From IMG/VR virus record IMGVR_UViG_3300020442_003756, positions 2,400-66,399 of that record: 64,000 nucleotides of DNA; one strand, given 5' to 3'. This DNA comes from a virus. A model generated the notes under the pieces. It was not told the DNA's origin. It saw only the letters and a program-made list of their open reading frames with translations, and made no database searches. The position numbers and the translations under genes are program-made. Positions 3,690 to 51,660 of the stretch are shown one piece after another; position 1 is the first letter of the stretch; each line of letters begins with the position of its first letter.

Positions 3690-4733
3690 TTATTTTAGTT
3701 TTTCTAAATCTTCCCATTCTAACCTATCAAGTAAATGCTTAGGCCACCTTAAAATAAAAGCAGCATTATCTTGATACCCAAATGTGATTAATAAATCATC
3801 TCCATCAAGTGCTAATCCACAAGTAAATTCAATTCTAGTACCCATGTATTGGAATTGTTTTGATACTTTTACTAAATTCCAATCTTCATCCCACATAACA
3901 AATCTGTGGTAATAAAAAGCATCTTTATATTTACCTTCATGATGGAAGAAATCTACTTCATGGGTAATACAAGTATATAAACCGTCTACTTTTATAACTT
4001 GAGAACCACCCCTTAAATCCCAAGGTAATTTTACATAATTATCTTTAGTAATTACAGTTTCACATTCGACAGTATTTAAAATACCTTCTTGTACTTTTTC
4101 TTTTCCTTTTTTATCTAGATTAACTTTAACTATTTCTAAAGGATTAGTCCATTTTAAAAAGTGATAAGGCATATCCAATACTGGCATCCAATTTTTTTCT
4201 AGATAGTTTTGAGAAGGGTGTTGAATTCTTTCTCTTGTTTTTTCAATAATAGCATCTTCAGTCCAATCAACTTCACATAATTCCATTCTACCTTGTCCAT
4301 TATCATAAACATCTCTTCTAACACCACAAATATATAACTTACCTTCCCATCTAAAAACTCTAGCATCTTCAAGGCCTACAAAAGACCAAATTGGTTTAAT
4401 GTCATGTTTTGAAGTATCTACATTTCTAAATTCAAGTATTTCATGTGTTTCTCTATCTAATTTACAAAGATAATTACCTGTAGTAAGGGTTAAATCATCT
4501 TCAGGATTTAAATAAGCTAAAGCACCCCATTTACAATAAAATTTCTGATTATATTCAGAATGATATAAGGTATAATGTACGTGTCTAATATTTGCTAATA
4601 AATCTCCATTTTCATCTAAATAAACAGAAACATTACATAAACCTGTACCTCCAGTTAATTCAGAAGGTATAATTAATGGTGTTAAACTTCCACCATTATG
4701 GATTGCTATTTGCGATATATTGTCTAAAATCAT
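3690..4733 (-). CDS. Putative five-bladed beta-propeller (GH130-like) carbohydrate enzyme
   Basis: GLEDARV, EKNWMP, LRGGSQ, IEFTCGL, ITFGYQD motifs. Confidence 0.65.
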   Translation of the reverse strand: MILDNISQIAIHNGGSLTPLIIPSELTGGTGLCNVSVYLDENGDLLANIRHVHYTLYHSEYNQKFYCKWGALAYLNPEDDLTLTTGNYLCKLDRETHEILEFRNVDTSKHDIKPIWSFVGLEDARVFRWEGKLYICGVRRDVYDNGQGRMELCEVDWTEDAIIEKTRERIQHPSQNYLEKNWMPVLDMPYHFLKWTNPLEIVKVNLDKKGKEKVQEGILNTVECETVITKDNYVKLPWDLRGGSQVIKVDGLYTCITHEVDFFHHEGKYKDAFYYHRFVMWDEDWNLVKVSKQFQYMGTRIEFTCGLALDGDDLLITFGYQDNAAFILRWPKHLLDRLEWEDLEKLK

Positions 4734-4736
4734 ATT

Positions 4737-5363
4737 TTATATATAATGTCCACCACCTAACCATAAAACAAAAGATTTCCTAGTTCCTGATAACACAGGA
4801 GCTACTCTGTGCATCATAAAAGAAGGAAAAATAAAAACACAACCTCTTTTTCTTGGTGCTTTAATAATGTGAGAATGATTTGAATCTTTTGCATCCTCAG
4901 GAAAAGGACCTCCTTTAAATAATTCTAAATCTCCTCCTTCATAATCATCAGCTTCTGAAAGTTGGACTGTTATTGAAATTTTTCTTTGTGAACCATGAGA
5001 AGGTCCAATATCTTGATGCCATTCATATTTTCCTCCTTTACTACCTACATATTCTGTATATTGAATTTGTTCAGGCATTGTATGTAAACTAAAATTCCAT
5101 AAATTACTATTAGCTTCTATAGCCATATGATTTAATTTTTCATATAACCACCACCATTGAGTATTTTGTGGTACCCATTTTACTCTAGATACTCTAGTTC
5201 TACCATCATTCTCCCCTCCAAAAGTTGAAGCAGTATGTAAAGGTAATTTTATAACATCTTTTTCTATTTTTTTTAATTCTTCTTCGCTAAAACCTTGTTC
5301 AAAATAATAATAATTAGTTTGATCAAGTGAATCAGGTTGAGTCATTTGTAGTACTCTATTCAT
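4737..5363 (-). CDS. 2OG-Fe(II) oxygenase (PKHD/prolyl-hydroxylase-like)
   Basis: WHQD, RKISITVQLS, YEGGDL, FPSFMMHRVAPVLSGTRKSFVLW. Confidence 0.9.
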   Translation of the reverse strand: MNRVLQMTQPDSLDQTNYYYFEQGFSEEELKKIEKDVIKLPLHTASTFGGENDGRTRVSRVKWVPQNTQWWWLYEKLNHMAIEANSNLWNFSLHTMPEQIQYTEYVGSKGGKYEWHQDIGPSHGSQRKISITVQLSEADDYEGGDLELFKGGPFPEDAKDSNHSHIIKAPRKRGCVFIFPSFMMHRVAPVLSGTRKSFVLWLGGGHYI

Positions 5364-6262
5364 TAGTCTTTATTAATTGATTGAAATATTTTATTAATAT
5401 CAAAAACATCTTCTCCTTTATCCCAAGGAAAATCAAGTATTCCTTCATTTAATTCATATTGAGAATATGTTTTAGAGTTTGTTGTAAATTCTTTTTTATG
5501 TGGTTCAGCCATAATATTATCATGTAAATCATATCCAAACACAATTGGATTAGTAGTAACCCAACAAACAGTAGAAGGTAAATTTAATGCCGCAGCCATA
5601 TGTTGAGCAAAACTATCAATGAAAACTCTTTTTTCTGAAGTTAATAACATATAAGCAACGGATCTAGGGCTATCAACACATTCAAAAGTATCAGGATAAC
5701 CTTGTTGATCTGGTCTTTTTATATGAACAATATTATATGAATCTCTATATTCTTCTATTAATTGAATAATAATTTCTTGGGGTAAATCTCTTGCCCAATT
5801 ATAACCAGGATGAACTTGAGGAGATATAACACCTCCGTTAGTATGAATTGCCATAACCGGTTTTTGAACATCTGCTGGGTTAATGTCAAATATTTTACCA
5901 TAATATTCTTTTTCACCTTCAGTAAAAAATATTTCTGGTTGTTCACCATTATATTTAATATCATTTATTTTACACCATGTTTCTATTAGATGAGCTTTTT
6001 CAGTAATAAAATCATTATGATGAAAGGGATCAATAGCAAATACCTTACACTCTTTACCTTTAATATAAAGTTCATAAACAGCATTTCCTAATTCTTCATT
6101 TTTATGCGTAATATCAATATTAGGATTATTTTTAAAAATTTGTGGATATTGAGAAATAACAATAACTGTAGAATCAGGATATTGTGTTTTAATTGCTTTT
6201 AAAACAGCCGTAGCAGCTATACATTTTCCAATTCCACCTATTATGGTAAAGATAATATTCAT
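5363..6262 (-). CDS. GT9-like (heptosyltransferase-fold) glycosyltransferase
   Basis: GGIGKCIAAT N-terminus, NNPNID, IDSFAQHMAAALNLPSTV. Confidence 0.75.
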   Translation of the reverse strand: MNIIFTIIGGIGKCIAATAVLKAIKTQYPDSTVIVISQYPQIFKNNPNIDITHKNEELGNAVYELYIKGKECKVFAIDPFHHNDFITEKAHLIETWCKINDIKYNGEQPEIFFTEGEKEYYGKIFDINPADVQKPVMAIHTNGGVISPQVHPGYNWARDLPQEIIIQLIEEYRDSYNIVHIKRPDQQGYPDTFECVDSPRSVAYMLLTSEKRVFIDSFAQHMAAALNLPSTVCWVTTNPIVFGYDLHDNIMAEPHKKEFTTNSKTYSQYELNEGILDFPWDKGEDVFDINKIFQSINKD

Positions 6263-8561: not shown

Positions 8562-11500
8562 TTATTTATTATCAATATATTCTTTTAATTCTTTGATTGC
8601 TTGAATTAATACTGCAATTAATCTATCATATTTAACAGCTTTGTATCCATTTACTCTTGTTTCAACAATTTCTGGGAATATTTCTTCAACTTCTTGGGCA
8701 ATAACTCCAATATCTGCTCCTTCATTTTCATGTATTCCTGGTTTTGCAATCCAATCAAAATGTATACCACTTAATGCCATTATTTTATCTAAAGCATTTT
8801 CAATAATTTTTCTATTATCTTTTAATCTAATATCTGATGAATAATAAGCTGTAATATCATTAGTAGCTCTTATTGTTCCACCTGTACCACTTGCAGAAAC
8901 ACCAACACCTAAACTATTAATTTGTGTATCTGAACCAGTACTTACACCTGGTCCAGTTGGTCCTACGTTACCTTGAGCTCCAATTGATCCTTTATTACCT
9001 TGAGGACCTTGTGATCCTACTTCACCTTTTTGTCCTTTAGCACCAGTTGGTCCAACGTTACCCTGAGGTCCAACATTACCTTGAGCACCTATTGCACCTT
9101 TAGCACCTTGAGGTCCCACATTACCTTGAGCACCAATAGCACCTTTTGAACCTTGAGCACCAACATTACCTTGAGGTCCTACTGGTCCTATAGGTCCTAT
9201 TGAACCGATTGCACCTTTTGCACCTGTAGGTCCTACATTACCTTGAGGTCCTACATTACCTTGAGCACCAATATTACCCTGAGGTCCTGTTGTACCAGTT
9301 ATACCTTGAAGACCAGTATCACCTTTACCACCTTTAGCACCTTGAGCACCAACGTTACCTTGAGGTCCTACGTTACCTTGAGCACCTGGTGCACCTTTTT
9401 GTCCTTTAGGTCCTGTTGGTCCAACGTTACCTTGAGGTCCTACGTTACCTTGAGCACCTATTGCACCTTTAGCACCTTGAGGTCCAGTAGTACCTTGTGT
9501 ACCAACATTACCTTGAGGTCCTGTTGCTCCAATTGCACCTTTTGGTCCGGTAGGTCCTACATTACCTTGAGGTCCTGTATCACCTTGTGCACCAATTGCC
9601 CCTTTTGCACCTTGAGGTCCTACGTTACCTTGAGAACCAATTGCACCTTTTGCACCTTGTGCACCTGTTGTACCAGTAATACCTTGAGCACCAACGTTAC
9701 CTTGAGGTCCTGTTGCTCCAATTGCACCTTTTGAACCTTGAGCACCAACATTACCTTGAGGTCCTGTTGTACCAGTTATACCTTGAAGACCAGTATCACC
9801 TTTACCACCTTTTGCTCCTTGAGGTCCTACATTACCTTGAGCACCAATATTACCTTGAGGTCCCGTTGAACCAGTAGTACCTTGGATACCTTGAACACCC
9901 TGAGCTCCAATATTACCTTGAGGTCCTGTAGCTCCAATTGCACCTTTATCTCCTTGTGGTCCTACATTTCCTTGTGGACCAGTTGTACCAGTAATACCTT
10001 GTGCACCTGTTGCACCTTTATTACCTTGAGCTCCTACTTCTCCTTTTTGTCCTTTAGGTCCAGTTGGTCCTACAGGTCCTGTTGTACCTTGAATACCTTG
10101 AGCACCTGTTGCACCTTTATTACCTTGAGGCCCTGTTGTACCTTGTGTACCAGTAGTTCCTTGAGAACCAGTTGTTCCTTGAGCTCCTGTAGCACCTTTT
10201 TGTCCTTTTGAACCAGTAGTACCTTGAATACCCTGAGCACCAGTATCACCTTTATCACCAGTTGTAACAAAAGAACAAATTATATCTTCTGAATTACTAA
10301 ATGGTGAAGTAGCTGAACTTGCTTCATTTGTTATATTTAATGTCCACCAAGTTCCATTATCTGTTAGATCAGTAATTGCAAATGTTAAGAATTGTGTTGC
10401 ATCTGTTCTATTTGAAATTCTTATATGTCCCTTAACTGCTGAAGTAACACTATCAATTGTTGATAATGTAGAAGCAATACTTGTTCCATTATCATCAGTT
10501 TCATCAATGTATGAAAGTGTTGCAGAATTTTGAGTTGAATTATTTAATCTTATTTTTCCAGTTCCTGGGTCAGCAGATGATGTAGATGAATCAAATGTAA
10601 AATCAAATGAATTACCACCAAAGTTACCATCTGTACCTTGTATACCTTGTGTACCTTGGGTACCTTGTATTCCTTGTGTTCCTTGAACTCCCTGAGCACC
10701 TGTAGCACCTTTTTGTCCTTTTGAACCTGTTGTACCCTGAATACCTTGTGTACCCTGAATACCTTGTGTTCCTTGAATTCCTTGAGCTCCAGTAGCACCT
10801 TTTTGTCCTTTTTGTCCTTTTGTACCTGTTATACCTTGAATACCTTGTGTACCTTGTGTTCCTTGGATACCTTGAGTACCTTGAGTACCAGTATCACCTG
10901 TAGTTCCTTGGGCTCCTGTAGCACCTTTTTGTCCTTTTGTACCTGTAATACCTTGAGCACCTGTAGTACCTTGAGCACCTGTTATACCCTGTATACCTTG
11001 TATTCCTTGAGTACCTTGTGTTCCTTGAGAACCAGTATTACCTGTAGTACCTTGAATACCTTGAGCACCAACTTCTCCTTTTTGTCCTTTTGTACCTGTT
11101 ATACCCTGAGCTCCAGTTGCACCTTTTTGTCCTGTAGTACCTTGAGCTCCAGTTTCACCTTGTGTACCAGTTGTACCTTGGGCACCTGTTGCACCTTTTT
11201 GACCTGTTGTACCTTGAGCTCCAGTAATACCTTGAATACCTTGAATTCCTTGGGTTCCTTGAGTACCTTGTGTACCAGTTGTTCCTTGAGAACCAGTTGT
11301 ACCAGTTGTTCCTTGAATACCTTGTGAACCAGTTATACCTTGAGCACCAGTGTTACCTGTAGTTCCTTGAGCACCTGTAACTCCTTTTTGTCCTTTTTGT
11401 CCTTTTGTACCTGTTATACCTTGAATTCCTTGAGTACCTTGAATACCTTGAGTTCCTTGTATACCCTGAGTACCTTGTATACCCTGAGTACCTTGTGTAC

Positions 11501-14500
11501 CAGTAGTACCTTGAGCTCCTGTAATACCTTGAATACCCTGTATTCCTTGTATTCCTTGAGTACCTTGAGTTCCTTGTGTTCCCTGAGCTCCAATTTCTCC
11601 TTTTTGTCCTTTTTCTCCTGTCTCACCTTGAGCACCAGTTGCACCTTTTTGTCCTTTTGTACCTGTAATACCTTGTGTACCCTGTGTTCCTTGAGCACCT
11701 GTTATACCTTGAATACCTTGAATACCTTGAGCACCAGTAGTACCTTGAGTTCCAGTTGCTCCTTGTGCACCAGTATCACCTTTTTGTCCAGTTATACCTT
11801 GAGTACCTTGAGTACCAACTGCTCCTTTTTGTCCTTTTTGTCCAGTTTCACCTTGAGCTCCAGTTGTACCTTGTGAACCAGTTGTTCCTTGAGTACCCTG
11901 GATTCCTTGTGCCCCAGTTATACCTTGTATTCCTTGAGTTCCCTGAATACCTTGTGCACCTACTTCACCTTCAGCACCTTGTACTCCTAAAGGTCCTGTT
12001 GTACCTTGAATACCTTGAGTACCAGTTTCACCTTGAGTTCCAACCGCACCTTGTGCACCTGTTAAACCTGCTGTACCTTGAATTCCTTGTACACCCTGTA
12101 TACCCTGTATACCTTGAACACCTTGTGTTCCTTGAATACCTTGAGCCCCAGTTGTCCCTTGAGCACCAGTATCTCCTTTATCACCTGTACTTACAAATGA
12201 ACAAATAATATCTTCTGCATTACTAAAAGGAGATGTTGCAGAACCTGCTTCATTTGTTATGTTAAGAGTCCACCAACCAGTATTATCAGTTAAATCGGAA
12301 ATTGCAAATGTTAAGAATTGAGTTGCATCCGTTCTATTTGAGATTCTAATATGTCCTTTTACAGCTGATGTTACACTATCTATTGTTTGTAGTGTTGAAG
12401 CAATACTATTACCATCATCATCAGTTTGATCAATATAAGCAGCTGTAGCACTATTTTGTGTTGAATTATTTAATCTTATTTTTCCAGTACCAGGATCTGA
12501 AGCTCCTGTACCTGTATCAAAAGTATAATCAAATGAATTACCTCCAAAGTTACCATCAGTACCTTGAACACCTTGTGTTCCTTGAACACCTTGTGTTCCT
12601 TGTACTCCTTGTGTTCCCTGAATACCTTGAATTCCTTGAGTACCCTGTGTTCCTTGTATCCCTTGAATACCTTGAGCACCTAATTGTCCTAAAGTTCCTT
12701 GAATACCTTGTGTTCCTTGAACACCTTGTGCACCAGTTGTACCTTGTGTACCAGTTGTTCCTTGTGAACCAGTTGTTCCTTGTGTACCGGTTGTTCCTTG
12801 AGTACCTTGTGTACCAGTTATACCTTGTATACCTTGAATACCTTGAGTTCCTTGTGTTCCTGTAGCACCTTGAATTCCTTGAGTACCTTGTGTTCCAGTT
12901 TCTCCTTGAGTACCTGTTTCTCCTTGAGCACCAGTTACACCTACTTCTCCTTTTTGTCCTTTTGTACCTGTAATACCTTGAGTACCTTGTGTACCTTGAG
13001 TTCCAGTTATACCCTGTATGCCTTGTGTTCCTTGTGTTCCTTGTGTACCAGTTTCACCTTGAGTACCAGTTGAACCAGTAGTACCTTGAGTACCTTGAAT
13101 ACCTTGTGTACCAGTAGTACCCTGAGTTCCTGTTATACCTTGTATACCTTGTGTACCCTGTGTTCCTTGTATTCCTTGAGTTCCCTGAGTTCCTTGTGCT
13201 CCTGTTATACCCTGTATTCCTTGAGTACCTTGTGTACCTTGAATACCTTGAATACCTTGTACTCCCTGAGTGCCTTGTGTTCCTTGAATTCCTTGTGTGC
13301 CTTGTGTTCCTTGTGCACCAGTTATACCTTGTATACCTTGAGTACCTTGTGTTCCAGTTTCTCCTTGTGCCCCAGTAATACCTTGAATACCCTGAATACC
13401 TTGAGTTCCTGTTTGACCTTGAGCACCTGTAGCACCTTTTTGTCCAGTTGTACCTTGAATACCTTGAGCACCGGTTGTACCTTGAGTTCCAGTTGCTCCT
13501 TGTGCACCTGTTATACCTTGTATACCTTGTGTTCCTTGTGTACCTTGAGTTCCTTGAGAACCAATAGTACCCTGAATTCCTTGAATACCTTGTGTACCTT
13601 GAATACCTTGTGTTCCTTGAGTACCTTGAGTACCTTGAGCACCATCTGATAAAGTTTCAATATCAAGTTGACCACCCATTCCTGAGTGATTCTGGCAATA
13701 ATAATATAATGTATTTGGCGCATCTTGTGGTACTTTAAATGTAGAAATTAAATCAGTACCAGCTGTTCCGCCATTTGTACTCCAACCATCTGTATATTGA
13801 GATCCACCGTTATGAGTACCATCATTAGTTGTTGAAATAGCTATTGGGTGAGTACTGTTTGTTCCAGCTGATTGATCAAATGTATAAGTAAATCCTCTTA
13901 ATAATTCTAATGTTGGTTGTGATGATCCATCTATAATATAAACACCACCTCCTACTGTAACAATAAATGCATCAGTAATTGGTTCACTACCTGTTATACC
14001 TTGAACACCCTGTGTACCTTGAATTCCTTGTGTTCCTTGAGTACCTTGAGCTCCAGTTATACCTTGAATTCCTTGTGTACCTTGTGCACCTGTAATACCT
14101 TGGATACCTTGAGTTCCTTGAATTCCTTGTGTGCCCTGTGTTCCTTGTGCTCCTGTTATACCTTGTATACCTTGTATTCCTTGAGTACCTTGAGTACCAA
14201 TTTCTCCTTTTTGTCCTTTTGAACCTTGATCACCAGTATTACCTTGTGTACCTGTAGATCCTTGAGTACCAGTAGTACCTTGAGTACCAGTTGTTCCTTG
14301 AATACCTTGAGTTCCTTGAATACCCTGAACACCTTGTGTTCCTTGAGTACCTTGAGCTCCAGTTATACCTTGAATTCCTTGTGTACCTTGAGGACCTGTA
14401 GTTCCTTGATTACCTGTTGTACCTTGTATTCCTGTAGCACCTTGAGTACCTGTTATACCTTGTATACCTTGAATACCTTGTGCACCTGTTGTACCTTGTG

Positions 14501-16676
14501 TACCTTGAGCACCAGTATCTCCTTTGTCTCCAACTGCAACAAAAGAACAAATTATATCTTCAGCATTTGAAAATGGTGAAGCAGCTGAACTTGCTTCATT
14601 AGAAATATCTAAAGTCCACCAAGAACCATTATCTGTTAAATCTGTTATAGCAAATGTTAAGAATTGGGTGGCATCAGTTCTATTAGAAATTCTAATATGT
14701 CCTTTAATTGCGGAAGTTACTGAATCTAAAGTTTGTAAAGTTGATTCAATACTTGCTCCACCTCCATCATTTTGAGAAATATAAGCAGCTGTAGAGCTAT
14801 TTTGTGTTGAATTATTTAATCTTATATCACCTGAACCTGGGTCTGCTGCACTTGTAGAAGAATCAAATGAATAATCAAAAGAGTTACCTCCAAAATTACC
14901 ATCTGTACCTTGAATACCTTGAGTACCTTGTGTACCAGTTTCTCCTTGTGCCCCAGTAATACCTTGTATTCCTTGAGTACCTTGTGTTCCTGTTGTTCCT
15001 TGAATACCCTGAGCTCCAGTTGTTCCTTGTGTTCCAGTTGTTCCTTGTGCACCAGTAATACCTTGAATACCTTGAGTTCCTTGAGTTCCTGTTTCACCTT
15101 GAGTTCCATCTGTACCTTGTGTACCAGTATTACCTTGTGTACCAGTAGCACCTTGCGTTCCAGTTGTTCCCTGAGAACCAGTAATACCTTGAGCTCCAGT
15201 TGCTCCTTGAGTTCCTAACTCACCTTTTTGTCCTTTTACACCATCAGTAGAAGAACCAGAAATACCTTGAATACCTTGTATTCCTTGTGTACCTGTTGTA
15301 CCCTGAATACCTTGAGTACCTGTTGTACCTTGTGTTCCAGCTCCTGTTATACCTTGAATACCTTGAGTACCCTGAGTTCCAGTTTCTCCTTGAGCACCTT
15401 TTGATCCAGTAATACCTTGAATACCTTGAATACCTTGTGTTCCTTGAATACCTTGAATACCTTGGTTACCTGTTTCACCCTGTGCACCAGTTGTACCTTG
15501 AATACCTTGAGTTCCCTGAATACCTTGAGTTCCTTGAATACCTTGTGTACCTTGAGTTCCTTGAGCACCTGTAATACCCTGAATACCTTGAATACCTTGA
15601 ATACCTTGTGTACCAGTTGTACCTTGTGTTCCTGTTTCACCTTGTGTACCAGTTGTACCTTGTGTTCCTGTTTCACCTTGTACCCCAGTATCTCCTTTTT
15701 GACCAGTTGCTCCTTGTGAACCTGTTATACCCTGAGTACCTTGAGCTCCTGTTATACCTTGTATACCTTGTATACCTTGAATTCCTTGTGTGCCCTGTGT
15801 ACCTTGTGTTCCTTGTGCTCCAGTTATACCTTGTATACCCTGAGTTCCGGTTTCACCTTGAGCACCTACTTCTCCTTTTTGACCTTTTGTACCAGTAATA
15901 CCTTGAGTACCTTGTACACCTTGAGTACCCTGAGTACCAGTAACACCTTGAATACCTTGTATACCTTGGGTACCTTGAGTACCTTGTGTTCCTTGTGTAC
16001 CAGTAGCTCCCTGTGTACCAGTTGCACCTTGTGTTCCAGTTATACCTTGAATACCTTGTATACCTTGTATACCTTGAGCACCTTGATCACCTTCAGCTCC
16101 TTTTTGTCCTTTTGTACCTGTTATACCTTGAGCACCTTGAGTTCCAGTTTCTCCTTGAGCACCCTTTTCTCCTTTTTGACCTTTTTCACCTGTTTCACCT
16201 TGTATACCCTGTATACCTTGGGTACCTTGAGTACCTTGTGTTCCTTGTGTACCAGTCTCACCTTGTGTACCTGTTGTTCCTTGGGTACCTTGAGTTCCAG
16301 TTGCACCTTGTGCACCAGTAATACCTTGAATTCCCTGAATACCTTGTGTGCCTTGAGTACCTTGAGTACCTTGAGCACCTGTAATACCTTGACTACCAAT
16401 TGGACCAGTTTCACCTTGAGTACCTGTTGTACCAGTTGCTCCTTGAGCACCTTTTGCACCTTTTTGACCAGTAGTACCTTGGGCACCTGTTGTACCTTGA
16501 GAACCTACACCTGAGGCAAATGATAAGTTACCGGATCCATCTGTTTTTATTACTTGGTCTGCTGAACCATCTGAGGTTGGATAGATAAGTCCACTAGCGG
16601 TAAGTGCTGTGGATACATTTAATTTGTTTAATTCTGCGTTAGAACCACTAACGACAACTTTTTTCCAATTGGGCAT
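8562..16676 (-). CDS. Giant collagen-like tail/fibre protein with C-terminal S74 intramolecular chaperone
   Basis: Long Gly-X-Y tracts, four globular interruptions, C-terminal [28 protein letters not shown]. Confidence 0.92.
8945..16500 (-). repeat. Collagen Gly-X-Y coding repeat tracts (9-nt periodicity, CCTTG-rich on + strand)
   Basis: Directly visible repeated acc/ttg codon pattern. Confidence 0.95.
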
Positions 16677-16689
16677 ATATCTAAATTAA

Positions 16690-16735
16690 TTATGGTTGGT
16701 AACTCAAAATGAGCCCACTTCCGTTAGGCCTATAA
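16690..16735 (-). promoter_or_regulatory. Candidate structured 5' leader RNA of the giant fibre gene
   Basis: GC-rich island with nested complementarity: UUAU(A)GG/CCAUAA, CC-UAAC-GG, GCUC-AUUUU-GAGU. Confidence 0.45.
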
Positions 16736-16745
16736 TTTATTTTGT

Positions 16746-16754
16746 TATAAATAT
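16746..16754 (-). promoter_or_regulatory. Putative late promoter ATATTTATA
   Basis: Motif recurs in intergenic gaps upstream of structural genes. Confidence 0.65.
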
Positions 16755-16772
16755 ATAAGATGGAATTAAATA

Positions 16773-19700
16773 TTACTTTTTATCCCTAAGATTGTTGATT
16801 TGTTTTTGTTGTTCTTTAATCGCTTCAATTAATAAAGGAACTATTTTGTCATAGTTAACAGCTTTATATCCATTTTCTCTAGTTTGAACAACTTCTGGTA
16901 ATACTTCTTCAATTTCTTGTGCTATAACACCAATATCAGATCCTTTATTTCCATGAATATATTTAATACCTTCTTCATCTAATTTTTTCCAATCAAAGTT
17001 AACACCACTTATTTGAAGAACTTTTTCAATTGGATTATCAATTGGTAAAATATTTTCTTTTAATCTTTTATCTGAAGTAGAGTAAGCAACAATATCATTA
17101 GTAGCTTCAATTTTACCTATTGTTGTAGTAGCAGTAATATTTCCAACAGTAAGACCATTACTTACAGTTAAAGAACCACTTACTTCTAAAGCTTGAGAAG
17201 GAGAACTATCATGAATACCAATATAACCAGAACTTCCATCTACAAAGAATGCGTGTGTTGGTGTTGTACCAGTATCTGATTCAACCCTAAAATCAACATT
17301 TACACTATTATCATTAATAATAACTTCTCCTAATCCTGGTGTTGAACCTGGATTAAGAGCAGAAAATAATCTTCTTGTTCCTACTACTACATCAAATCTA
17401 TCAACAGTACCAACTCTTGAAGCACTAATATTAGTATCACTATCAGGTCCAAATACTATACTTGTTTCATTTGCTGATAATTTTAATTGATCACTATCCT
17501 CATGCCATTTAATATCGGAAGAACCAGTTATACCACCATTACCACCTAATATTGCAAAAGCTCTATTAGCATCATTAGTAATATCAGCAGCAGCTCCTTT
17601 TTGTCCTTTAGTACCAGTAATACCTTGAGCACCATTTGAACCATTAGATCCATTTTTAACATATTGAACAAGTACATCTTCACTATTAGAAAAAGTACCA
17701 TTTTGTTCTACGTCTGCAGAACTAACATCTAGTAAAGCTCTTGTACCATTAACTGTATTAATAGTATAAGAAGCAACAGTAATTATATCACCAGCTGTTG
17801 TTCCATAAATTATAAATTGAGAATTTTTAGAAAATAAATTATTATGAGTAGCACCATCTGCATCTTCTAAAGCAATTGAAATTTGTGTTGAACTACCTAT
17901 AGTTGAATTATTAAATCTAATTTGTCCAGCTGCACCCGCCATATCAGTACTAGTACTATAAGTATAATTTAATCCTGCTGTAGCACCTTTTTGACCAGTT
18001 ATACCTTGAGCTCCAGTAATTCCTTGTGCACCCGTTATACCTTGAGTACCTGTTATACCTTGAGCACCCGTAATACCTTGTACACCTTGTATACCTGTTA
18101 TACCTTGTGCACCCGTTATACCTTGAGCTCCAGTAATACCTTGAGTACCTGTTATACCTTGAGCACCCGTAATACCTTGTGCACCTGTTATACCTTGTGC
18201 ACCTGTTATACCTTGAGCTCCAGTAATACCTTGGGCTCCAGTAATACCCTGTGCACCTGTTATACCTTGAGCTCCAGTAATTCCTTGTGCACCCGTTATA
18301 CCTTGTGCACCTGTTATACCTTGTGTACCTTGAGAACCTGTAATACCTTGTACACCTTGTATACCTGTTATACCTTGTGCACCCGTTATACCTTGAGCTC
18401 CTGTTTCTCCTGTTATACCTTGAATACCTTGAATACCTTGAGTACCTGTTATACCTTGAATACCTTGTGTACCCTGTGTTCCTTGAGTACCCGTTATACC
18501 TTGGATACCTTGTACGCCTTGAGCTCCAGTAATACCTTGAGCACCTTGAGCACCAGTATCACCTTTATCACCTGTAGTAACAAATGAACATATAATATCT
18601 TCTGAATTACTAAATGGTGAATCTGATGAATAAGCTTCTTGTGAAATATCTATTGTCCACCAACCCGTATTATCAGTTAAATCACTAATAGCAAATAAAA
18701 TAAATTGAGAAGCATCAGTAATATTAGATAACCTAACATGTCCTTTAACGGCTGAACCAACTGAATCTATTGATTGCATGAATGATGAAATATCATTTCC
18801 ATTATCATCAGTATCATCAATATACATTGCGGTAGCACCTTTTTGTCCAGCTGCTGCACCTGAAAGTGAATTTAATCTAACTTTTCCAGTACCTGGATCT
18901 GCTGGTGAAGCCGAAGAACCATCAAAAGTATAATCAAATGTAGCACCCCCAAAATTACCATCAGTACCTTGAGCACCTGTTGTACCTTGGGTACCTGTGG
19001 TACCTTGAGGACCAACAGTACCAACTCCTGTTGTACCTTGAATACCTTGAGAACCTAAAATACCTTGAATACCTTGAATACCTTGGGCACCAGTTGTTCC
19101 TTGTGTTCCTTCACCTATTTCACCTTTTTGTCCTTTTTCTCCAGTTGCGCCTTGAGCACCGGTAGCACCTTTTTGTCCTTTGGTTCCAGTAATACCTTGA
19201 GTACCTTGGGCACCAACTTCACCTTTTTGTCCTTTTTCTCCTTTTTCTCCTGTTTCACCTTGAGCACCAGTAATACCTTGAATACCTTGAACACCTTGTG
19301 CACCAACTTCTCCTTTAGCACCTTTTGAACCTTTTTGACCAGTTATACCTTGAATACCTTGAGCACCAGTTGCACCTTTTTCACCTGTTATACCTTGTAT
19401 CCCTTGAGCACCTGTTGCACCTTGTGCACCAGTTTCACCTTTTTGTCCTTTTTGTCCTTTTTGACCTGTTATACCTTGAATACCTTGAATTCCTTGTACA
19501 CCTTGTGCACCTGTAGTTCCTTGAATACCCTGAATACCTTGAGTACCTTGTGCTCCAATTTCTCCTTTTTGTCCTTTTTCTCCTGTTTCACCTTGTGTAC
19601 CAGTAGCACCTTGTGTACCTGTTTCACCTTGAGCACCCTTTTGTCCTGTAATACCCTGAATACCTTGAGTTCCAGTTGCTCCTTGAGTACCTGTTGCTCC

Positions 19701-20570
19701 TTGAGATCCTGTTATACCTTGAATGCCCTGAGCACCTGTAGTACCTTGAGCACCTTTTGCACCTTCTATTCCTTGTGCACCTGTTATACCTGTAATACCT
19801 TGTGGACCTGTAGCTCCTGTTATACCTTGAACACCTTGAGCTCCTTGTGTACCCGTTGCTCCTTTAGCCCCACTTGAACCAGTAGTACCTTGAATACCCT
19901 GAGGACCTACATTACCTAAATTACCTTGAGGTCCTGTAGCACCTTGTGCACCTGTATTACCAGTTGTTCCTTGTATACCTTGAGCACCTGTAGTACCTTG
20001 GGTACCAGTTTCACCCTGAGTACCAGTAGCACCTTGAGTACCAGTTGTACCTTGTGTACCAAAAGTACCTTGAATACCTTGAGCACCAGTTGTTCCTTGA
20101 ATTCCTTGTTGTCCTGTAGCTCCTTGAGTACCTGTTGTACCCTGTGTACCTGTAGGACCAGTTGTACCACTAATACCTTGAGTACCTGTTGCACCTTGAG
20201 CACCTGTACTACCTTGAATACCTTGAGCTCCAGTTATACCTTGTGTTCCTTGAATACCTTGAGCACCAGTAGCTCCTTGAGCACCAATAGAAGAATCATA
20301 ATATAAAACACCAGAACCTGTATCAGCTACTAAAACTTGTAATGCATTTGAAGCGGAAGGATTTGATTGAACATTTTCAATTTTAAATTTATCTGCAGAA
20401 GTAGCTAAGTGAAAAGTAGATGAACCAGAAACTGCTAAAGAACCTGAAATGCCAATTTCATATCCAACTGTAGAACTAGGGTTAAATGCATCAAATGATT
20501 GGGATACCTGTAACGCTTCAATAGTTTGTCCCGTTTCTACACCAGTTTTTATTATCTTTTTAAGAGCCAT
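16773..20570 (-). CDS. Collagen-like tail/fibre protein 2 with C-terminal S74 chaperone
   Basis: Gly-X-Y tracts, VDFRVESD beta segment, SDKRLKEN..FDW..GVIAQEIE..Y.KIVPLLIEAIKEQ. Confidence 0.92.
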   Translation of the reverse strand: MALKKIIKTGVETGQTIEALQVSQSFDAFNPSSTVGYEIGISGSLAVSGSSTFHLATSADKFKIENVQSNPSASNALQVLVADTGSGVLYYDSSIGAQGATGAQGIQGTQGITGAQGIQGSTGAQGATGTQGISGTTGPTGTQGTTGTQGATGQQGIQGTTGAQGIQGTFGTQGTTGTQGATGTQGETGTQGTTGAQGIQGTTGNTGAQGATGPQGNLGNVGPQGIQGTTGSSGAKGATGTQGAQGVQGITGATGPQGITGITGAQGIEGAKGAQGTTGAQGIQGITGSQGATGTQGATGTQGIQGITGQKGAQGETGTQGATGTQGETGEKGQKGEIGAQGTQGIQGIQGTTGAQGVQGIQGIQGITGQKGQKGQKGETGAQGATGAQGIQGITGEKGATGAQGIQGITGQKGSKGAKGEVGAQGVQGIQGITGAQGETGEKGEKGQKGEVGAQGTQGITGTKGQKGATGAQGATGEKGQKGEIGEGTQGTTGAQGIQGIQGILGSQGIQGTTGVGTVGPQGTTGTQGTTGAQGTDGNFGGATFDYTFDGSSASPADPGTGKVRLNSLSGAAAGQKGATAMYIDDTDDNGNDISSFMQSIDSVGSAVKGHVRLSNITDASQFILFAISDLTDNTGWWTIDISQEAYSSDSPFSNSEDIICSFVTTGDKGDTGAQGAQGITGAQGVQGIQGITGTQGTQGTQGIQGITGTQGIQGIQGITGETGAQGITGAQGITGIQGVQGITGSQGTQGITGAQGITGAQGITGAQGITGAQGITGAQGITGAQGITGAQGITGAQGITGAQGITGTQGITGAQGITGAQGITGIQGVQGITGAQGITGTQGITGAQGITGAQGITGQKGATAGLNYTYSTSTDMAGAAGQIRFNNSTIGSSTQISIALEDADGATHNNLFSKNSQFIIYGTTAGDIITVASYTINTVNGTRALLDVSSADVEQNGTFSNSEDVLVQYVKNGSNGSNGAQGITGTKGQKGAAADITNDANRAFAILGGNGGITGSSDIKWHEDSDQLKLSANETSIVFGPDSDTNISASRVGTVDRFDVVVGTRRLFSALNPGSTPGLGEVIINDNSVNVDFRVESDTGTTPTHAFFVDGSSGYIGIHDSSPSQALEVSGSLTVSNGLTVGNITATTTIGKIEATNDIVAYSTSDKRLKENILPIDNPIEKVLQISGVNFDWKKLDEEGIKYIHGNKGSDIGVIAQEIEEVLPEVVQTRENGYKAVNYDKIVPLLIEAIKEQQKQINNLRDKK
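17995..18420 (-). repeat. Near-perfect (GIT-GAQ)n hexapeptide tandem repeat
   Basis: GITGAQ repeated many times in the translation. Confidence 0.9.
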
Positions 20571-20595
20571 TAGGTAGAATTATATTTTTATTTAT

Positions 20596-20605
20596 TATAA
20601 ATATT
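20596..20605 (-). promoter_or_regulatory. Putative late promoter AATATTTATA
   Basis: Recurrent motif about 25 nt upstream of ATG. Confidence 0.7.
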
Positions 20606-20645
20606 AAACAGAGAAGAATAAGTGTAACCCATTAAAGAAAATAAT

Positions 20646-22586
20646 TTATGAATAAATATAAATATCACCATTTTCGTCTACATACATGTTACCTACTGCT
20701 TGGAATGTTGAAGATCCTGAAATACCATTATTATTAGCAATTGCAGTAACAAAAGATTTTGGTACAAAACCACTTCCAGCACCTGGGTCAAATGATGAAG
20801 TGAATCCCCATCTATTAGCGTTGTAATCAAATCCAAATAATTCTGTATTGGTAGGAGTTGTTTGTTGTATTGCTATACCTCCATCTCCATTTGAAGTAGA
20901 ACCAGAAGCTAATCTAATAAATCTATCAGCTACATTTAAATTACTTTCATGTTGGAAAGAAGCAGTACCTTGAACTGTTAAATCACCTTGTACAACAGCA
21001 TTTCTTGTTACTGTTAAATCTTGATTTATAGTAGCATCTAAACCAACTGTTAAATCTTCCCCAATTGACATTGTAGGAATTGATAAACTATTAGCTAAAG
21101 AAACAGCACCAGAAGAAACTTGAAAATCACTTGAATCAAATGAAGCAATACCTTTATTAGTTGTAGTAGCATCTTCACCTGAAATTGTAATTGTATTATT
21201 TGATCCTGAAGTGTCTAAACCTTCACCAGCTAAAATATTAAATGCTTGAGTTTTTAAATTTACACTTCCAGATCCTAATGACGCAGTATATTGTAAAGTT
21301 GAAGCAATTCCAGTTAAACCTGAACCATCACCTTCAAATGAACCACTAAATGAACCACTTAATTGTCCTGAAGCAGTTACAGCAGTTAAATTTAATTTAT
21401 TTAAAGTTGTTTTTGTATCACCTAAGTCAACAACAGTATCACCTAAAGTAAAACTTGATGTTGCTAATGAAGAAGTTGGTAAACCACCTGTTACAACACT
21501 TAATGAACCACCTGAAATTTCAATTGTATTACCATCAACTTGAACACCTAATTTTGTTCCACCACCACCAAATAATGCACCTGAAGACGAAACGGCTGAA
21601 GATGAAATTTGGAATGAAGTAATACCACTATCAGCAACTCTTACTCCATTTGCTCCTGCTTCTAAAGTGGAACCTGAAACTTGTACAGAAACGGTTGCAG
21701 CACTACTACCATCAAAACTAAAATCAGTTATACCACTACCATCTGTTAATGCGTTTGTTAATTTTGAAGCTGTAATATCTCCTTTAAATGATCCAGTAAA
21801 TGAACCACTAAATGAACCTGTACCACCTGTTGAAGTACCACTACCAGTAGCAAAAGTATCAAATACGGTATCAACAGCAGTTTGGTAACCAGCTAAAGAA
21901 TAACCAGTACTAATACTAATATCAGCAGCAGAAAATATAGGTGCCATTGATTCAGAAACTGATTGTTCTACAATGGCAAAAGTTGTATTTGTTGTTACTT
22001 GTGTTTTTCCAGTTGGTATACCATTAACACCATCTGAACTTGCAGTTATATAAAAAGAAGCATTAACATTAGAAGTTCTACTTCCAAATTTAGAAATTTT
22101 TAATTGAGCAAAATCACCAACAATAGTTGAACCTGCTGATGAAGTACTAGCTAATGGGAATATCATACCATATGTTCTAGTACCATCTTGATAAGTTGCA
22201 TCATCACTACCAGTAACATCTGTTAATCTAAAAGCTGCATTATTAGGTACAGTTAATGAACCAGATTCAATATAGAATGAATCAGCAGCAGGTGAAATTC
22301 TTGCTAAGGCACCTGAAGTACTTGCAGAAGAATTATCACTAACAGTAATAGTTGAACCAACTATATTTGTAATTGTTGTACCAGAAGGAAAAGCTGAGGA
22401 TTGAACTAATTTTTGTCCAATTAAGGCTTCCGAATAATTAACAGCACCACCAGCATTATTTACTGCATTTGTTATAGTGGGTGAACCACTAGTAAAATCA
22501 CCATTAATTCTTATAAATGAGTTATCACCGTTTTTATAAACGGTAGATGCTATTATTTTTCCAAAGTTAAGTCTATTCGACGCCAT
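20646..22586 (-). CDS. Ser/Gly/Thr-rich virion fibre/structural protein
   Basis: SGSFSGSFEGDGSGLTG, GDLTVQGT..L.VADRFI.L and beta-repeat motifs common in phage fibres. Confidence 0.75.
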   Translation of the reverse strand: MASNRLNFGKIIASTVYKNGDNSFIRINGDFTSGSPTITNAVNNAGGAVNYSEALIGQKLVQSSAFPSGTTITNIVGSTITVSDNSSASTSGALARISPAADSFYIESGSLTVPNNAAFRLTDVTGSDDATYQDGTRTYGMIFPLASTSSAGSTIVGDFAQLKISKFGSRTSNVNASFYITASSDGVNGIPTGKTQVTTNTTFAIVEQSVSESMAPIFSAADISISTGYSLAGYQTAVDTVFDTFATGSGTSTGGTGSFSGSFTGSFKGDITASKLTNALTDGSGITDFSFDGSSAATVSVQVSGSTLEAGANGVRVADSGITSFQISSSAVSSSGALFGGGGTKLGVQVDGNTIEISGGSLSVVTGGLPTSSLATSSFTLGDTVVDLGDTKTTLNKLNLTAVTASGQLSGSFSGSFEGDGSGLTGIASTLQYTASLGSGSVNLKTQAFNILAGEGLDTSGSNNTITISGEDATTTNKGIASFDSSDFQVSSGAVSLANSLSIPTMSIGEDLTVGLDATINQDLTVTRNAVVQGDLTVQGTASFQHESNLNVADRFIRLASGSTSNGDGGIAIQQTTPTNTELFGFDYNANRWGFTSSFDPGAGSGFVPKSFVTAIANNNGISGSSTFQAVGNMYVDENGDIYIYS

Positions 22587-22599
22587 TTAATTTTTTTAT

Positions 22600-22609
22600 T
22601 ATAAATATT
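22600..22609 (-). promoter_or_regulatory. Putative late promoter AATATTTATA
   Basis: Recurrent motif upstream of ATG. Confidence 0.7.
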
Positions 22610-22645
22610 AAAGCAACTATTAAATGGAACCTTTTTTATCACTTT

Positions 22646-24607
22646 TTAAATAGTGACTTTAAGTATTATTGGACCAAATTGATCAACACTACCTACTTTT
22701 AAAATATTAAAATTAGAACCTAGCGCAAATTGTTGTGATGGTACAAAACTTGTAGAATTACCAGCACCTGTGACACCTAAACCACTCATTACTACTGGAT
22801 TAATATTTGACTTACTTCCATATGTACCTGCACCTTCTTGAGTTCCAGCTGGTAATGTTATATTCATTGGTGAAGTTTGTTGATTATTAGCAAATAATCT
22901 AACACTATTCAATTGACTACTTCCACTTAATCCACCTGGAGCAGTAATTGTTATAGCAGTTACATCACCTGAACTATTAGTTACACTAGCAGAAAAAGCA
23001 GTTATGTAAGCTAATGCATCACCCGAAGAGCCATTACTATTAGCTACTGCACAACTAAAATGATTATCATCAATTCTTGTTATTGCTCTAAGTAAATAAT
23101 CTTGACCACCAGCATTTCTTACCATTACAACATCACCATTAGTTAAACCATGATTAGAACTTGTAACATTAAGTGTTGTAGTTACTCTATTCCATGATTT
23201 GCCTCCTAATTGATTTCCTGTTGAAGTTAATTCTAATGTATAATCAGAACCGCCTTGATCAATAATATATCTAATTTGACTATTATAAGAAGTAGAACCA
23301 CCACCTGGTGCAGAACTTCCACTTGCACCTGTAATTCCTTGAATACCTTGAACACCTTGAGCACCAGTTGTTCCCTGAGTACCTTGTGTTCCAGTACCTA
23401 TAATACCTTGTATACCTTGAACACCTTGTATACCTTGAACACCTTGTGTTCCTTGTATACCTTGTGCACCAGTAGTACCTTGTGTTCCAGCACCTGTTAT
23501 ACCTTGTATACCTTGTGTTCCTTGTGTTCCTGTAGTACCTTGAATTCCTTGAATACCTTGAATTCCTTGTATACCTTGTGCACCTGTTATACCCTGAATA
23601 CCTTGTGTTCCTTGAGTACCAGTTCCTGTTATACCTTGAATACCTTGAGTTCCTTGAATACCTTGTTGTCCCGTTTGACCTTGTGTACCAGTTTCTCCTT
23701 GAGTACCTGCACCGGTAATACCTTGAATACCTTGAATACCTTGTGTTCCTTGTGTACCAGTAGCACCCTGAGCACCTGTTATACCTTGAGCCCCTGTTGC
23801 ACCTGTAATACCTTGAATACCTTGTGCACCAGTAATACCTTGAGCACCTGTATCACCAGCCGCTCCTTGAACACCTTGGATTCCTTGAATTCCTTGTGTA
23901 CCTGTATCACCTTGAGCTCCAGTAATACCTTGAATACCTTGAATTCCTTGGGTTCCTTGAGCACCAGTAGCTCCTTGAGTTCCAATTGCATCAGCACCTT
24001 GTATACCTTGTATACCTTGTATTCCTTGGGTACCTTGTGTTCCAGTTGAACCACCCGCACCAGTTTCTCCTTGTGTACCTGTTATACCTTGAATACCTTG
24101 AATACCTTGAGCGCCAGTAGTACCTTGTGAACCACTTATACCAGCAATACCTTGAATACCTTGTGCACCTGTTATACCCTGAATACCTTGAGCACCTGTT
24201 GTTCCTTGAGTACCTCCAGGACCTGAAGGTCCTGTTATACCTTGAATACCTTGAATACCTTGTGTTCCTTGAGTACCTGTAGTACCTTGTGCACCAGTAG
24301 TACCCTGAGCACTTGCTAAAGAGTTAAAAAATACTTGACCATCAGCTGTATTAATTGCTAAAGCTTCTACTCTACCATCTAAACTACCTGATATATCCGT
24401 TAAACCATGTAAATGGATACCAGAAGTAATTGAACCTGAAGTAAAAGATTGACTAACTTGGAATGAACCAGTTACTAATAATGAGCCTGAAGTTTTAATC
24501 TGGTAATCTTGTATACCCGTAAATGCATCGACAGATTGAGAAACCTGTAGTGCTTCTATGGTTTGCCCAGTTGCGATCCCAGTTTTGGATAATGATTTAA
24601 GAGCCAT
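22646..24607 (-). CDS. Collagen-like fibre protein 3 (no S74 domain)
   Basis: Gly-X-Y tract about 23325-24305; N-terminus paralogous to fibre 2; HGLTNGDVV C-terminal beta domain. Confidence 0.9.
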   Translation of the reverse strand: MALKSLSKTGIATGQTIEALQVSQSVDAFTGIQDYQIKTSGSLLVTGSFQVSQSFTSGSITSGIHLHGLTDISGSLDGRVEALAINTADGQVFFNSLASAQGTTGAQGTTGTQGTQGIQGIQGITGPSGPGGTQGTTGAQGIQGITGAQGIQGIAGISGSQGTTGAQGIQGIQGITGTQGETGAGGSTGTQGTQGIQGIQGIQGADAIGTQGATGAQGTQGIQGIQGITGAQGDTGTQGIQGIQGVQGAAGDTGAQGITGAQGIQGITGATGAQGITGAQGATGTQGTQGIQGIQGITGAGTQGETGTQGQTGQQGIQGTQGIQGITGTGTQGTQGIQGITGAQGIQGIQGIQGIQGTTGTQGTQGIQGITGAGTQGTTGAQGIQGTQGVQGIQGVQGIQGIIGTGTQGTQGTTGAQGVQGIQGITGASGSSAPGGGSTSYNSQIRYIIDQGGSDYTLELTSTGNQLGGKSWNRVTTTLNVTSSNHGLTNGDVVMVRNAGGQDYLLRAITRIDDNHFSCAVANSNGSSGDALAYITAFSASVTNSSGDVTAITITAPGGLSGSSQLNSVRLFANNQQTSPMNITLPAGTQEGAGTYGSKSNINPVVMSGLGVTGAGNSTSFVPSQQFALGSNFNILKVGSVDQFGPIILKVTI

Positions 24608-51334: not shown

Positions 51335-51660
51335 ATTGATTTACTTAATTCTTCTTCCATTTCATCATCCATAAAAGCAGCCCATTTACCTTTGGGGCAG
51401 GATGAAGACATAGATCTTATTTTTAAAGCTAATATACAACCACAATCTGCACAACAAGGAGCTGTACCAGGCATTGCACAATGATCTCCTTTTCTATCTA
51501 TAAATTCACATCTATCACAAATTGACCATCTTATATCAGCAATTTGCTCAACATCATCTTTAGTGAATACTTTATTTTTAATCCCTTCCGCTATCGCAGG
51601 TAGATTACCAAATGCATTTATTAATTTATTTAGTCTACTCATACTATTTTCATTAACCAA
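51331..51660 (-). CDS. Cys-rich small protein (DUF6171-like)
   Basis: R.SICDRC...C...CCADCGC.L..K......CPKGKW. Confidence 0.65.
   Translation of the reverse strand: MVNENSMSRLNKLINAFGNLPAIAEGIKNKVFTKDDVEQIADIRWSICDRCEFIDRKGDHCAMPGTAPCCADCGCILALKIRSMSSSCPKGKWAAFMDDEMEEELSKSI

Follow-up and report, generated by a model that had tools for sequence, protein, structure and literature searches.

A predicted lysyl hydroxylase–GT25 glycosyltransferase of marine phages, genomically tied to collagen-like tail fibres and resembling the mimivirus L230 system

Here we analyse a collagen-like fibre locus and a predicted collagen-modifying enzyme encoded in 64,000 nucleotides (positions 2,400 to 66,399) of the IMG/VR virus record IMGVR_UViG_3300020442_003756. 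This stretch, hereafter the window, covers nearly all of a 66.4-kb viral contig with a G+C content of ~30% and tightly packed minus-strand genes. Based on homology and gene order, this phage and many other marine phages appear to encode an enzyme of the mimivirus L230 type, in which a collagen lysyl hydroxylase (LH) domain is fused to a GT25 glycosyltransferase (GT) domain, and which is genomically tied to collagen fibre genes. In bacteriophages such a counterpart of the mimivirus system seems not to have been described, and we consider it probable that the lysines of the fibres are modified by the phage enzyme. The collagen tracts themselves, encoded within a block of four minus-strand open reading frames (ORFs; P0001 to P0004) whose exact limits are 8562-24607, use an ordinary viral and bacterial triple-helix code that by itself is of little novelty.

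The fusion enzyme was recognised by Pfam as GT25 (E = 2.9e-15; 57.1 bits, cut-off 24) and as OGFOD2-like (3.9e-8), and its closest solved relatives in a phmmer search of the Protein Data Bank (PDB) were human LH3/PLOD3 (3.6e-26), mimivirus L230 (1.3e-23) and human COLGALT1 (7e-16). All 10 solved sequences matched at E values up to 1 were LH3, L230 or COLGALT1, with no other oxygenase among them, and the part matching LH3 and L230 comprises residues 280-470, a homology specific to the LH domain. In LH3, Fe2+ is bound by His667, Asp669 and His719 (an HxD...H motif) and 2-oxoglutarate (2OG) by Arg729, with Tyr656 and Cys691 lining the pocket (PMC6082870). The iron ligands, the 2OG-binding Arg and the pocket Tyr are conserved in the phage family as H403, D405, H453, R463 and Y392, which are invariant in 15 homologues. 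The GT25 domain (residues 73-232) aligns with residues 372-536 of COLGALT1, its catalytic GT2 domain (2.7e-16), and the catalytic and metal-binding EDD motif described for that domain (PMC12003778) aligns with E109-E110-D111, likewise invariant in the phage family. On these grounds the protein combines an L230/LH3-like lysyl hydroxylase domain with a GT25 domain in a single chain, with activity predicted from homology. Related proteins are numerous, as a word-indexed search matched 550 proteins at E values of at most 1e-5, all of them metagenomic, and the LH domain alone matched 2200 cluster representatives at up to 1e-3, 80 of these at up to 1e-30. Homologue lengths suggest that LH occurs alone and in GT25-LH, GT4-LH and GT4-GT25-LH forms.

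To a large extent, the link between enzyme and collagen derives from gene order in other phages. An alignment-based search of viral contigs found 151 relatives, from which 80 loci were kept; of these, 50 extend 3.4 kb or more upstream and 67 extend 3.4 kb or more downstream, and were eligible for the upstream and the downstream count, respectively. A collagen gene is located upstream of LH on the same strand in 40 of the 50 eligible loci, whereas none was found downstream (0/67) or on the other strand (0/80). The gap between collagen and LH is constant per lineage and measures 1.4-3.4 kb. Typically, the collagen fibre gene is succeeded by the gene of a ~200-aa 2OG oxygenase, in some cases by a GT2 gene, and then by a GT4-(GT25)-LH fusion of 558-810 aa; an exception is L013, in which the small oxygenase lies 3' of the fusion gene. 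Collagens beside LH vary in composition (Pro/Ile-rich, Ser-rich or Ala/Gln/Thr-rich), and in all of them Lys is placed almost only in Y, as in L068 with 125 Lys in Y and none in X. When loci were clustered at 90% LH identity, 14 of the 23 clusters with eligible loci were positive for collagen.

Among 50,697 phage records the enzyme was matched in 12, of which 11 were matched in the LH part. In all four of the cultured phages examined, namely S-CAM9, S-8S55, S-PRM1 and Roseobacter phage CRP-6, a collagen fibre gene is found directly upstream of 2OG oxygenases and LH, and these fibres have 22-26 Lys in Y and none in X. Full-length orthologues of the S-CAM9 fibre occur in only nine phage records, all nine of which are LH-positive. 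The collagens tabulated by Ghosh et al. 2012 (PMC3368898) and phage immuto served as the LH-negative control. In addition, fibres lacking an accompanying LH were sampled through their Peptidase_S74 (S74) domain; of the four records examined out of 1254, two contain runs of 10-12 triplets and two contain none.

In the window, LH is located 32 kb from the fibre genes. The closest relatives share an enzyme block, defined by gene order over eleven contigs (L001-L010 and L099), that comprises GT25-LH, a small oxygenase (9/11) and a GT4 gene (11/11). In one independent contig of this clade, G005, collagen genes and LH are 35 kb apart, with order and orientation as in the window, the same fibre architecture and 101 Lys in Y against none in X. 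Each part of the module (oxygenase, GT4, GT25 and LH) has an orthologue in the window. The 208-aa oxygenase encoded 3.2 kb downstream of P0001 shares 45-50% identity with the ~200-aa oxygenases of L013, L073, L027 and L021, and is the orthologue of the oxygenase encoded between collagen and LH in other phages. Similarly, the GT4 of the enzyme block shares 32-40% identity with the fusion proteins of L073, L027, L021 and L013 in their N-terminal parts.

Judged by its baseplate genes, the source phage, a marine myovirus, is a relative of Flavobacterium phage immuto: the wedge protein of the baseplate is 44% identical to its immuto counterpart and the baseplate module is collinear between the two. 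A megablast search with 24 kb of window sequence gave no match in the phage collection. The slot occupied by collagen genes in the window holds ordinary fibre and spike genes in immuto; the 49 kb of immuto examined contain no collagen tract, and immuto is not one of the 12 phage records matching the enzyme. The lack of both collagen and LH in immuto is consistent with a joint gain, as a single comparison. A scan of 185,579 species genomes returned L099 as the sole relative, a 9755-base contig of a Flavobacteriaceae metagenome-assembled genome (MAG) that is collinear with the phage enzyme block and is probably phage DNA binned into the MAG. Together with the kinship to immuto, this contig is a weak hint of a flavobacterial host.

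The tracts were evaluated as runs of at least six Gly-X-Y triplets, which number 684, 221 and 107 in P0001, P0002 and P0004, respectively, and 1012 overall. An earlier sequence-only reading had described their Y position as Gln, Thr or Lys, which accounts for 909 of the 1012 triplets (Q 549, T 271, K 89), and the seven triplets it named do dominate (GTQ 191, GIQ 152, GAQ 132, GIT 93, GTT 74, GAT 42 and GET 27; 711/1012). Its further statements that Lys occurs essentially only as G-X-K-G and that Pro is almost confined to X were also borne out, with 0 Lys in X and 89 in Y (Fisher p = 4e-28) and 43 Pro in X against one in Y, the sole Y-Pro being in GAP (p = 3e-12). Because Pro almost never occupies Y, stabilisation by hydroxyproline is not possible. 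The most frequent X residues are T (286), I (252), A (208), E (49), Q (43) and P (43), and the two positions differ in Gln (43 in X vs 549 in Y), Glu (49 vs 4) and Asp (19 vs 6). The residue before a tract Lys is Q in 38 cases, A in 12, T in 10, E in 8, S in 7, D in 5, N and P in 3 each, G in 2 and V in 1; Lys tends to pair or triple, with G-Q-K following in 27 of 89 cases and G-E or G-D in only 23. Lys outside the tracts often has no following Gly; over the whole proteins, the fraction of Lys with Gly next to it is 69/85 in P0001, 26/49 in P0002 and 0/7 in P0004. Arg is absent from the tracts yet occurs 35 times outside them. Gln makes up 29% of non-Gly tract positions compared with 3.8% in other window proteins, and Pro 2.2% compared with 4.1%; the composition is thus selected and not a product of AT bias alone.

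However, the designation of this pattern as a non-animal code did not hold up, since the pattern is real but neither new nor specifically non-animal. Viral collagens in Table 4 of Ghosh et al. 2012 have 22% Pro in X and 9% in Y, 35% Asp/Glu in X and 6% Arg/Lys in X against 38% in Y, with Gln and Thr favouring Y, and in Escherichia coli prophage tail-fibre collagens Arg/Lys make up 0.3% of X and 31% of Y; human collagens show a charge preference in the same direction (PMC3368898). The same source credits the missing Y-Pro of microbial collagens to Rasmussen 2003, and a 2022 review repeats the microbial position preferences. The tracts thus share with viral and bacterial collagens the placement of Pro and Asp/Glu in X and of Lys/Arg and Gln in Y, but not the preference of Thr for Y (X 286, Y 271; p = 0.49). 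Nor does the code imply modification. A prophage collagen produced in E. coli, which has no prolyl hydroxylases according to Ghosh et al. 2012, melts at 42 °C in unmodified form, and Thr glycosylation was not seen (PMC3368898). Since prophage collagens with Y-only Lys are stable unmodified, Y-only Lys and low Pro alone are no indication of modification. The proposal that the Pro-poor helices may depend on phage-encoded Lys and Thr modification therefore stands in one part only: modification of Lys is supported by the GT25-LH enzyme and by synteny, dependence of stability on it finds no support in view of the unmodified 42 °C prophage collagens, and the case for Thr is circumstantial. We regard a dependence of helix stability on Lys modification as unlikely.

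Several observations weigh against modification of the fibre lysines by the GT25-LH enzyme. No phage has direct evidence of fibre modification, and the Lys pattern is not specific evidence for it, as E. coli prophage collagens share this pattern unmodified. The P0004 tracts have no Lys at all, and Lys fills just 8.8% of Y positions overall. Regarding synteny, the ten closest viral loci (L001-L010, of which the eight from L001 to L008 have the at least 3.4 kb of upstream sequence required for eligibility) show no collagen within up to 10 kb on either side of LH, and four of five clade records searched whole contain no collagen, all five being estimated at 22-44% completeness. The 80 loci are also mutually related, collapsing at 70% LH identity into 6 clusters of which 3 are positive, and L070 and L079 have no upstream collagen. 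In the enzyme, the pocket residue corresponding to LH3 Cys691 is replaced by an invariant Thr (T425) and the middle Asp of the EDD motif by Glu, and GT25 is also a family of lipopolysaccharide (LPS) galactosyltransferases, with one source naming the homologues as such.

The fibres could be unmodified and stabilised by the code alone, through hydration networks of Gln and Thr, Lys-Gly-Glu/Asp salt bridges and a cold sea, with GT25-LH acting on another phage or host protein or on a surface glycan. In addition to the absence of Lys from P0004, the 32 kb between LH and fibres in this clade and the LPS annotation of GT25 homologues, this explanation would accommodate the abundance of 2OG oxygenases in marine phages, the use of which has been called cryptic (PMC9301287; PMC2938197), and the unmodified 42 °C melting of prophage collagens with the same code and no Thr glycosylation seen (PMC3368898). 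We nevertheless judge it rather unlikely, given that collagen, oxygenase and LH follow one another on the same strand in 40 of the 50 eligible loci and in all four cultured phages examined, that the S-CAM9 fibre and LH are co-distributed among phage records, and that the oxygenase domain has no solved relatives other than collagen lysyl hydroxylases.

Alternatively, the helices could be modified and stabilised chiefly by O-glycosylation of Thr, similar to vent-worm cuticle collagen or Bacillus BclA, through other glycosyltransferases of the contig and a phage-made deoxyhexose. The BclA glycan is attached to Thr of the collagen region. It is described as a rhamnose-containing tetrasaccharide, and the present tracts offer 271 Thr in Y. 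A scan of the contig for candidate modifiers found three small 2OG oxygenases, GT2, GT4, two GT25, RmlB-like and RmlC-like genes, to which a nucleotidyltransferase gene and a GH130-like propeller adjoining the fibre-linked oxygenase can be added. However, Thr is equally common in X and Y (286 vs 271), and no Thr-specific transferase family was recognised on the contig. The sugar genes are not syntenic with collagen elsewhere, save for GT4 and, in some lineages, an unrelated GT2, and marine phages commonly carry sugar-pathway genes for other reasons, so that we find this alternative quite improbable. That the long repetitive ORFs are assembly artefacts or non-coding open frames is highly improbable: although the DNA of the collagen repeats is metagenomic and highly repetitive with a 9-bp period, the repeats have diverged (59-89% matches) and the pattern is thus not the product of one recent duplication, the frames of 2704 and 1265 codons are unbroken and have proper N-terminal and C-terminal S74 domains, many tail-fibre PHROG families match, and G005 shows the same architecture independently.

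The three collagen ORFs are collagen-like tail fibres by sequence, and are predicted to form trimers (Table 1). Pfam Collagen (PF01391) matched P0001, P0002 and P0004 with E values of 2.4e-295, 6e-99 and 4e-45 (953, 324 and 152 bits, cut-off 27.2), and their longest Gly-X-Y runs comprise 175, 131 and 35 triplets, respectively. The rise of the triple helix is 0.286 nm per residue, which gives computed helix spans of ~587, 190 and 92 nm in the same order. P0002 and P0004 have similar N-termini and matched dozens of tail-fibre PHROGs, with E values down to 4e-141 for P0002. The C-terminal 166 aa of P0002 match tail fibres in 1254 phage records, the best being Synechococcus phage S-SRM01 (45.5%). 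The S74 domain of P0001 scored 57.4 bits (E = 1.7e-15; cut-off 22), and the Pfam S74 match begins with S-D-x-R-L-K in both P0001 and P0002; its Ser and nearby Lys may form the Ser-Lys dyad of S74 autocleavage. Pfam found no S74 domain in P0004. The intervening P0003 has no Gly-X-Y run and no match to a Pfam or PHROG family.

The helices of P0001 and P0002 are interrupted by a recurrent node domain, two copies of which are also present in G005 (L081 550-945 and 2095-2490). It was modelled by AlphaFold2 as a small, beta-rich fold (pLDDT 75) and has no Pfam family, with only viral hypothetical or collagen clusters shown in the Atlas. No convincing solved relative was found (best Foldseek E 0.07; best VIA Z 6.0, within the noise range). 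The node domain may register or nucleate helix segments. A different, 113-aa non-collagen insert of P0001 (13632-13994, residues ~895-1015) contains a His and, near its end, Cys-x2-His-x2-Met. This pattern resembles type-1 copper (cupredoxin) sites; Pfam gave no support for such a site, with a best E of 0.067 to an unrelated family.

Table 1 Features of the collagen fibre locus and of the enzyme genes in the window (positions in the window)
Feature	Position	Strand	Description
P0001	8562-16676	-	2704-aa collagen-like tail fibre; 684 Gly-X-Y triplets; 66 Lys in Y
P0001 main collagen blocks (five)	14883-16505, 13983-14531, 12537-13643, 10611-12185, 8946-10259	-	
P0001 Peptidase_S74 domain (PF13884)	8664-8837	-	Intramolecular chaperone; C-terminal, residues 2614-2671
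P0001 node domains (three)	14511-14900, 12165-12554, 10239-10628	-	~117 aa, breaks triple helix; tblastn, alignment
P0002	16773-20570	-	1265-aa collagen-like tail fibre; 221 triplets; 23 Lys in Y
P0002 collagen tracts	18942-20285, 17979-18572, 17589-17651	-	
P0002 Peptidase_S74 domain	16887-17075	-	C-terminal; 59.6 bits, Pfam cut-off 22
P0002 node domains (two)	18552-18959, 17631-17972	-	Second copy divergent; tblastn, alignment
P0003	20646-22586	-	646-aa Ser/Thr/Gly-rich protein between collagen genes; non-collagen
P0004	22646-24607	-	653-aa collagen-like fibre; 107 triplets at 23312-24304; no tract Lys
GT25-LH bifunctional enzyme (predicted)	56807-58237	-	476 aa; GT25 domain ~57659-58222, collagen lysyl-hydroxylase domain ~56828-57400
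2OG-Fe(II) oxygenase	56233-56805	-	190 aa; immediately 3' of fusion gene; Pfam 2OG-FeII_Oxy_3 8e-9
GT4/GT1-type glycosyltransferase	55103-56233	-	376 aa; Pfam; orthologue of GT4-(GT25)-LH fusion N-terminal domain
2OG-Fe(II) oxygenase, P4H/PKHD type	4737-5363	-	208 aa; Pfam 1.5e-13; 3.2 kb downstream of P0001, same strand

Based on these features, we propose that fibre maturation could proceed as follows. The chains present Gln, Thr or Lys in Y and small, beta-branched or acidic residues with few Pro in X, and beta-rich node domains would split the helices into rods. Lys of G-X-K-G would be hydroxylated by the LH domain prior to zipping of the helix, a reaction expected to need Fe2+, 2-oxoglutarate and O2. 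We place this step on unfolded chains because known lysyl hydroxylases act ahead of helix formation, as stated in the 2022 review. The GT25 domain would subsequently add a hexose to the new hydroxyl, either galactose as in animals or glucose as with L230, and the neighbouring GT4 would perhaps extend the glycan. In known fibres the S74 chaperone domain trimerises the chains and then self-cleaves; here the C-terminal S74 domain would trimerise the chains and the helix would then zip up, resulting in a fibre decorated with glycans. Such decoration is more likely to affect how the fibre surface behaves, for example in solubility, protease resistance or host contact, than to be indispensable for a stable helix.

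This system is most similar to that of mimivirus, which encodes the collagens L71, R196, R239-241, L668 and L669 together with L230, a single chain with an N-terminal GT and a C-terminal LH domain. In PMC9614988, L230 is described as a GLT25D1-like GT followed by LH that hydroxylates and glucosylates viral collagen peptides, and mimivirus collagens as low in Pro with Lys often in Y. The phage LH domain is homologous to that of L230 (1.3e-23 to 6AX6), the comparison being restricted to the solved C-terminal domain of L230. However, unlike L230 (895 aa), the phage enzyme of 476 aa lacks the long middle region, and its predicted activity could involve galactose or glucose, whereas L230 transfers glucose. 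The presumed phage substrates are tail fibres with S74 chaperone domains, other phages add a GT4 fusion and a second 2OG oxygenase, and since the phage host is a bacterium, modification would take place in the bacterial cytoplasm. The best solved relatives of both domains are the human enzymes LH3/PLOD3 and GLT25D1/COLGALT1 (3.6e-26 and 7e-16), which occur together in one solved entry (8ZGC), and with which the phage enzyme shares the Fe and 2OG ligands and a match to the catalytic GT2 domain of COLGALT1 including the metal motif. Unlike the human enzymes, it unites both predicted activities in a single chain with GT ahead of LH, has neither the LH3-type GT or accessory domains nor the COLGALT1 GT1 domain, and carries E-E-D in place of E-D-D and Thr in place of LH3 Cys691.

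The E. coli prophage proteins EPclA-D (Ghosh et al. 2012) are likewise tail fibres with collagen domains that place Pro and Asp/Glu in X and Lys/Arg, Gln and Thr in Y. However, they are Pro-rich (48% of X vs 4% here), short, use Arg besides Lys, and are stable unmodified from E. coli, and none of the 12 phage records matched in LH or GT25 is an E. coli phage or prophage. P0001 and P0002 resemble S74 fibres such as K1F endosialidase and the T5 L-shaped fibre in carrying a C-terminal S74 domain above the Pfam cut-off. In these classical examples the chaperone folds a triple beta-helix or fibre, whereas here S74 follows a collagen helix and its cleavage is a prediction. A further parallel is provided by bacterial operons in which 2OG dioxygenases, sulfotransferases and PAPS (3'-phosphoadenosine 5'-phosphosulfate) synthetase are encoded with collagen-like or tail-collar proteins, which the dioxygenases were predicted to modify (Iyer et al. 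2010; PMC2938197). As proposed for those operons, a co-encoded dioxygenase would hydroxylate a collagen-like protein and a second enzyme decorate the hydroxyl, and the window has a gene similar to adenosine 5'-phosphosulfate (APS) kinases near the fibre-linked oxygenase. For these operons neither a lysyl hydroxylase nor a GT25 is described, and PDB and Pfam searches revealed no sulfotransferase in the candidate ORFs of the window.

No description of a bacteriophage lysyl hydroxylase or of hydroxylysine in phage fibres was found in the literature covered, comprising main texts and few subscription journals. Bacterial and phage collagens are stated not to be hydroxylated or glycosylated in the 2022 review and PMC3368898, with mimivirus L230 as the sole non-animal exception (PMC9614988). 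A 2026 paper on lysyl hydroxylases mentions neither phages, viruses nor bacteria, and the use of viral prolyl 4-hydroxylase was called cryptic in a study of the Baltic virome (PMC9301287). It is possible that several families of marine phages (immuto-like myoviruses, Kyanoviridae and a small Roseobacter phage among them) possess a complete collagen maturation pathway of their own, consisting of LH, GT25, a GT4 extender and a second 2OG oxygenase, that places glycosyl-hydroxylysine on fibres in the bacterial cytoplasm. If true, an LH/GT module tied to fibres of marine phages, including cultured Synechococcus and Roseobacter phages, would change the picture of unmodified collagens, and glycosyl-hydroxylysine, deemed a trait of animals and giant viruses, would be widespread in the ocean virome. 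Some of the cryptic 2OG oxygenases and GTs counted as auxiliary metabolic genes in marine viromes would also gain a function. The phage enzymes would then be compact, prokaryote-compatible relatives and possibly ancestors of PLOD and COLGALT, with a bearing on the origin of collagen Lys modification, and could serve as small, bacterially expressible enzymes for modified recombinant collagens.

Several further architectures and neighbouring genes were observed. GT4, GT25 and LH are fused in a single protein of 775-810 aa in L013 (8237-10564), L021 (8592-11024) and L027 (7789-10155), and GT4 and LH in a 565-aa protein in L073 (8936-10633); no mention of either architecture was found in related papers. 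In S-SRM01 (L091 11530-12987), a gene annotated as flavin-dependent halogenase lies between tail-fibre and adhesin genes, and is another modifying enzyme within a fibre locus. The window itself encodes a second, stand-alone GT25 and a methyltransferase (50486-51334 and 51639-52256), which are kept in part of the clade. A phage-encoded dTDP-deoxyhexose pathway is suggested by genes at 62000-63799 for an RmlB-like protein (7e-85, under the curated cut-off), an RmlC-like protein and a nucleotidyltransferase, which are adjoined by a GT2 gene (61209-62003).

Near the fibre-linked oxygenase, an APS-kinase-like and a cytidylyltransferase-like ORF (1624-2417) match two halves of one PHROG 'kinase' profile, looking like a split or two-gene form of it, and recall the PAPS-synthetase operons of Iyer et al. 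2010. A 347-aa ORF at 3690-4733 has 5060 metagenomic homologues, often fused to an FkbM methyltransferase, and no Pfam family; the neighbouring ORF (2423-3688) has weak TPR and FkbM matches. The structural model of the 347-aa protein (pLDDT 80.6) is a GH130-like five-bladed propeller as in mannoside phosphorylases and mannosyltransferases (Foldseek E 3.5e-8, TM ~0.5). It was considered as the sulfotransferase of a hydroxylation-sulfation system, and was rejected in view of this model and the absence of a PDB or Pfam match; a second candidate at 5363-6262 also had no PDB or Pfam match. Finally, the gene at 1090-1575 encodes a SegE-type GIY-YIG endonuclease (Pfam 3e-25) that is 47% identical to an immuto gene product annotated as 'NAD synthetase', an annotation which therefore looks wrong.

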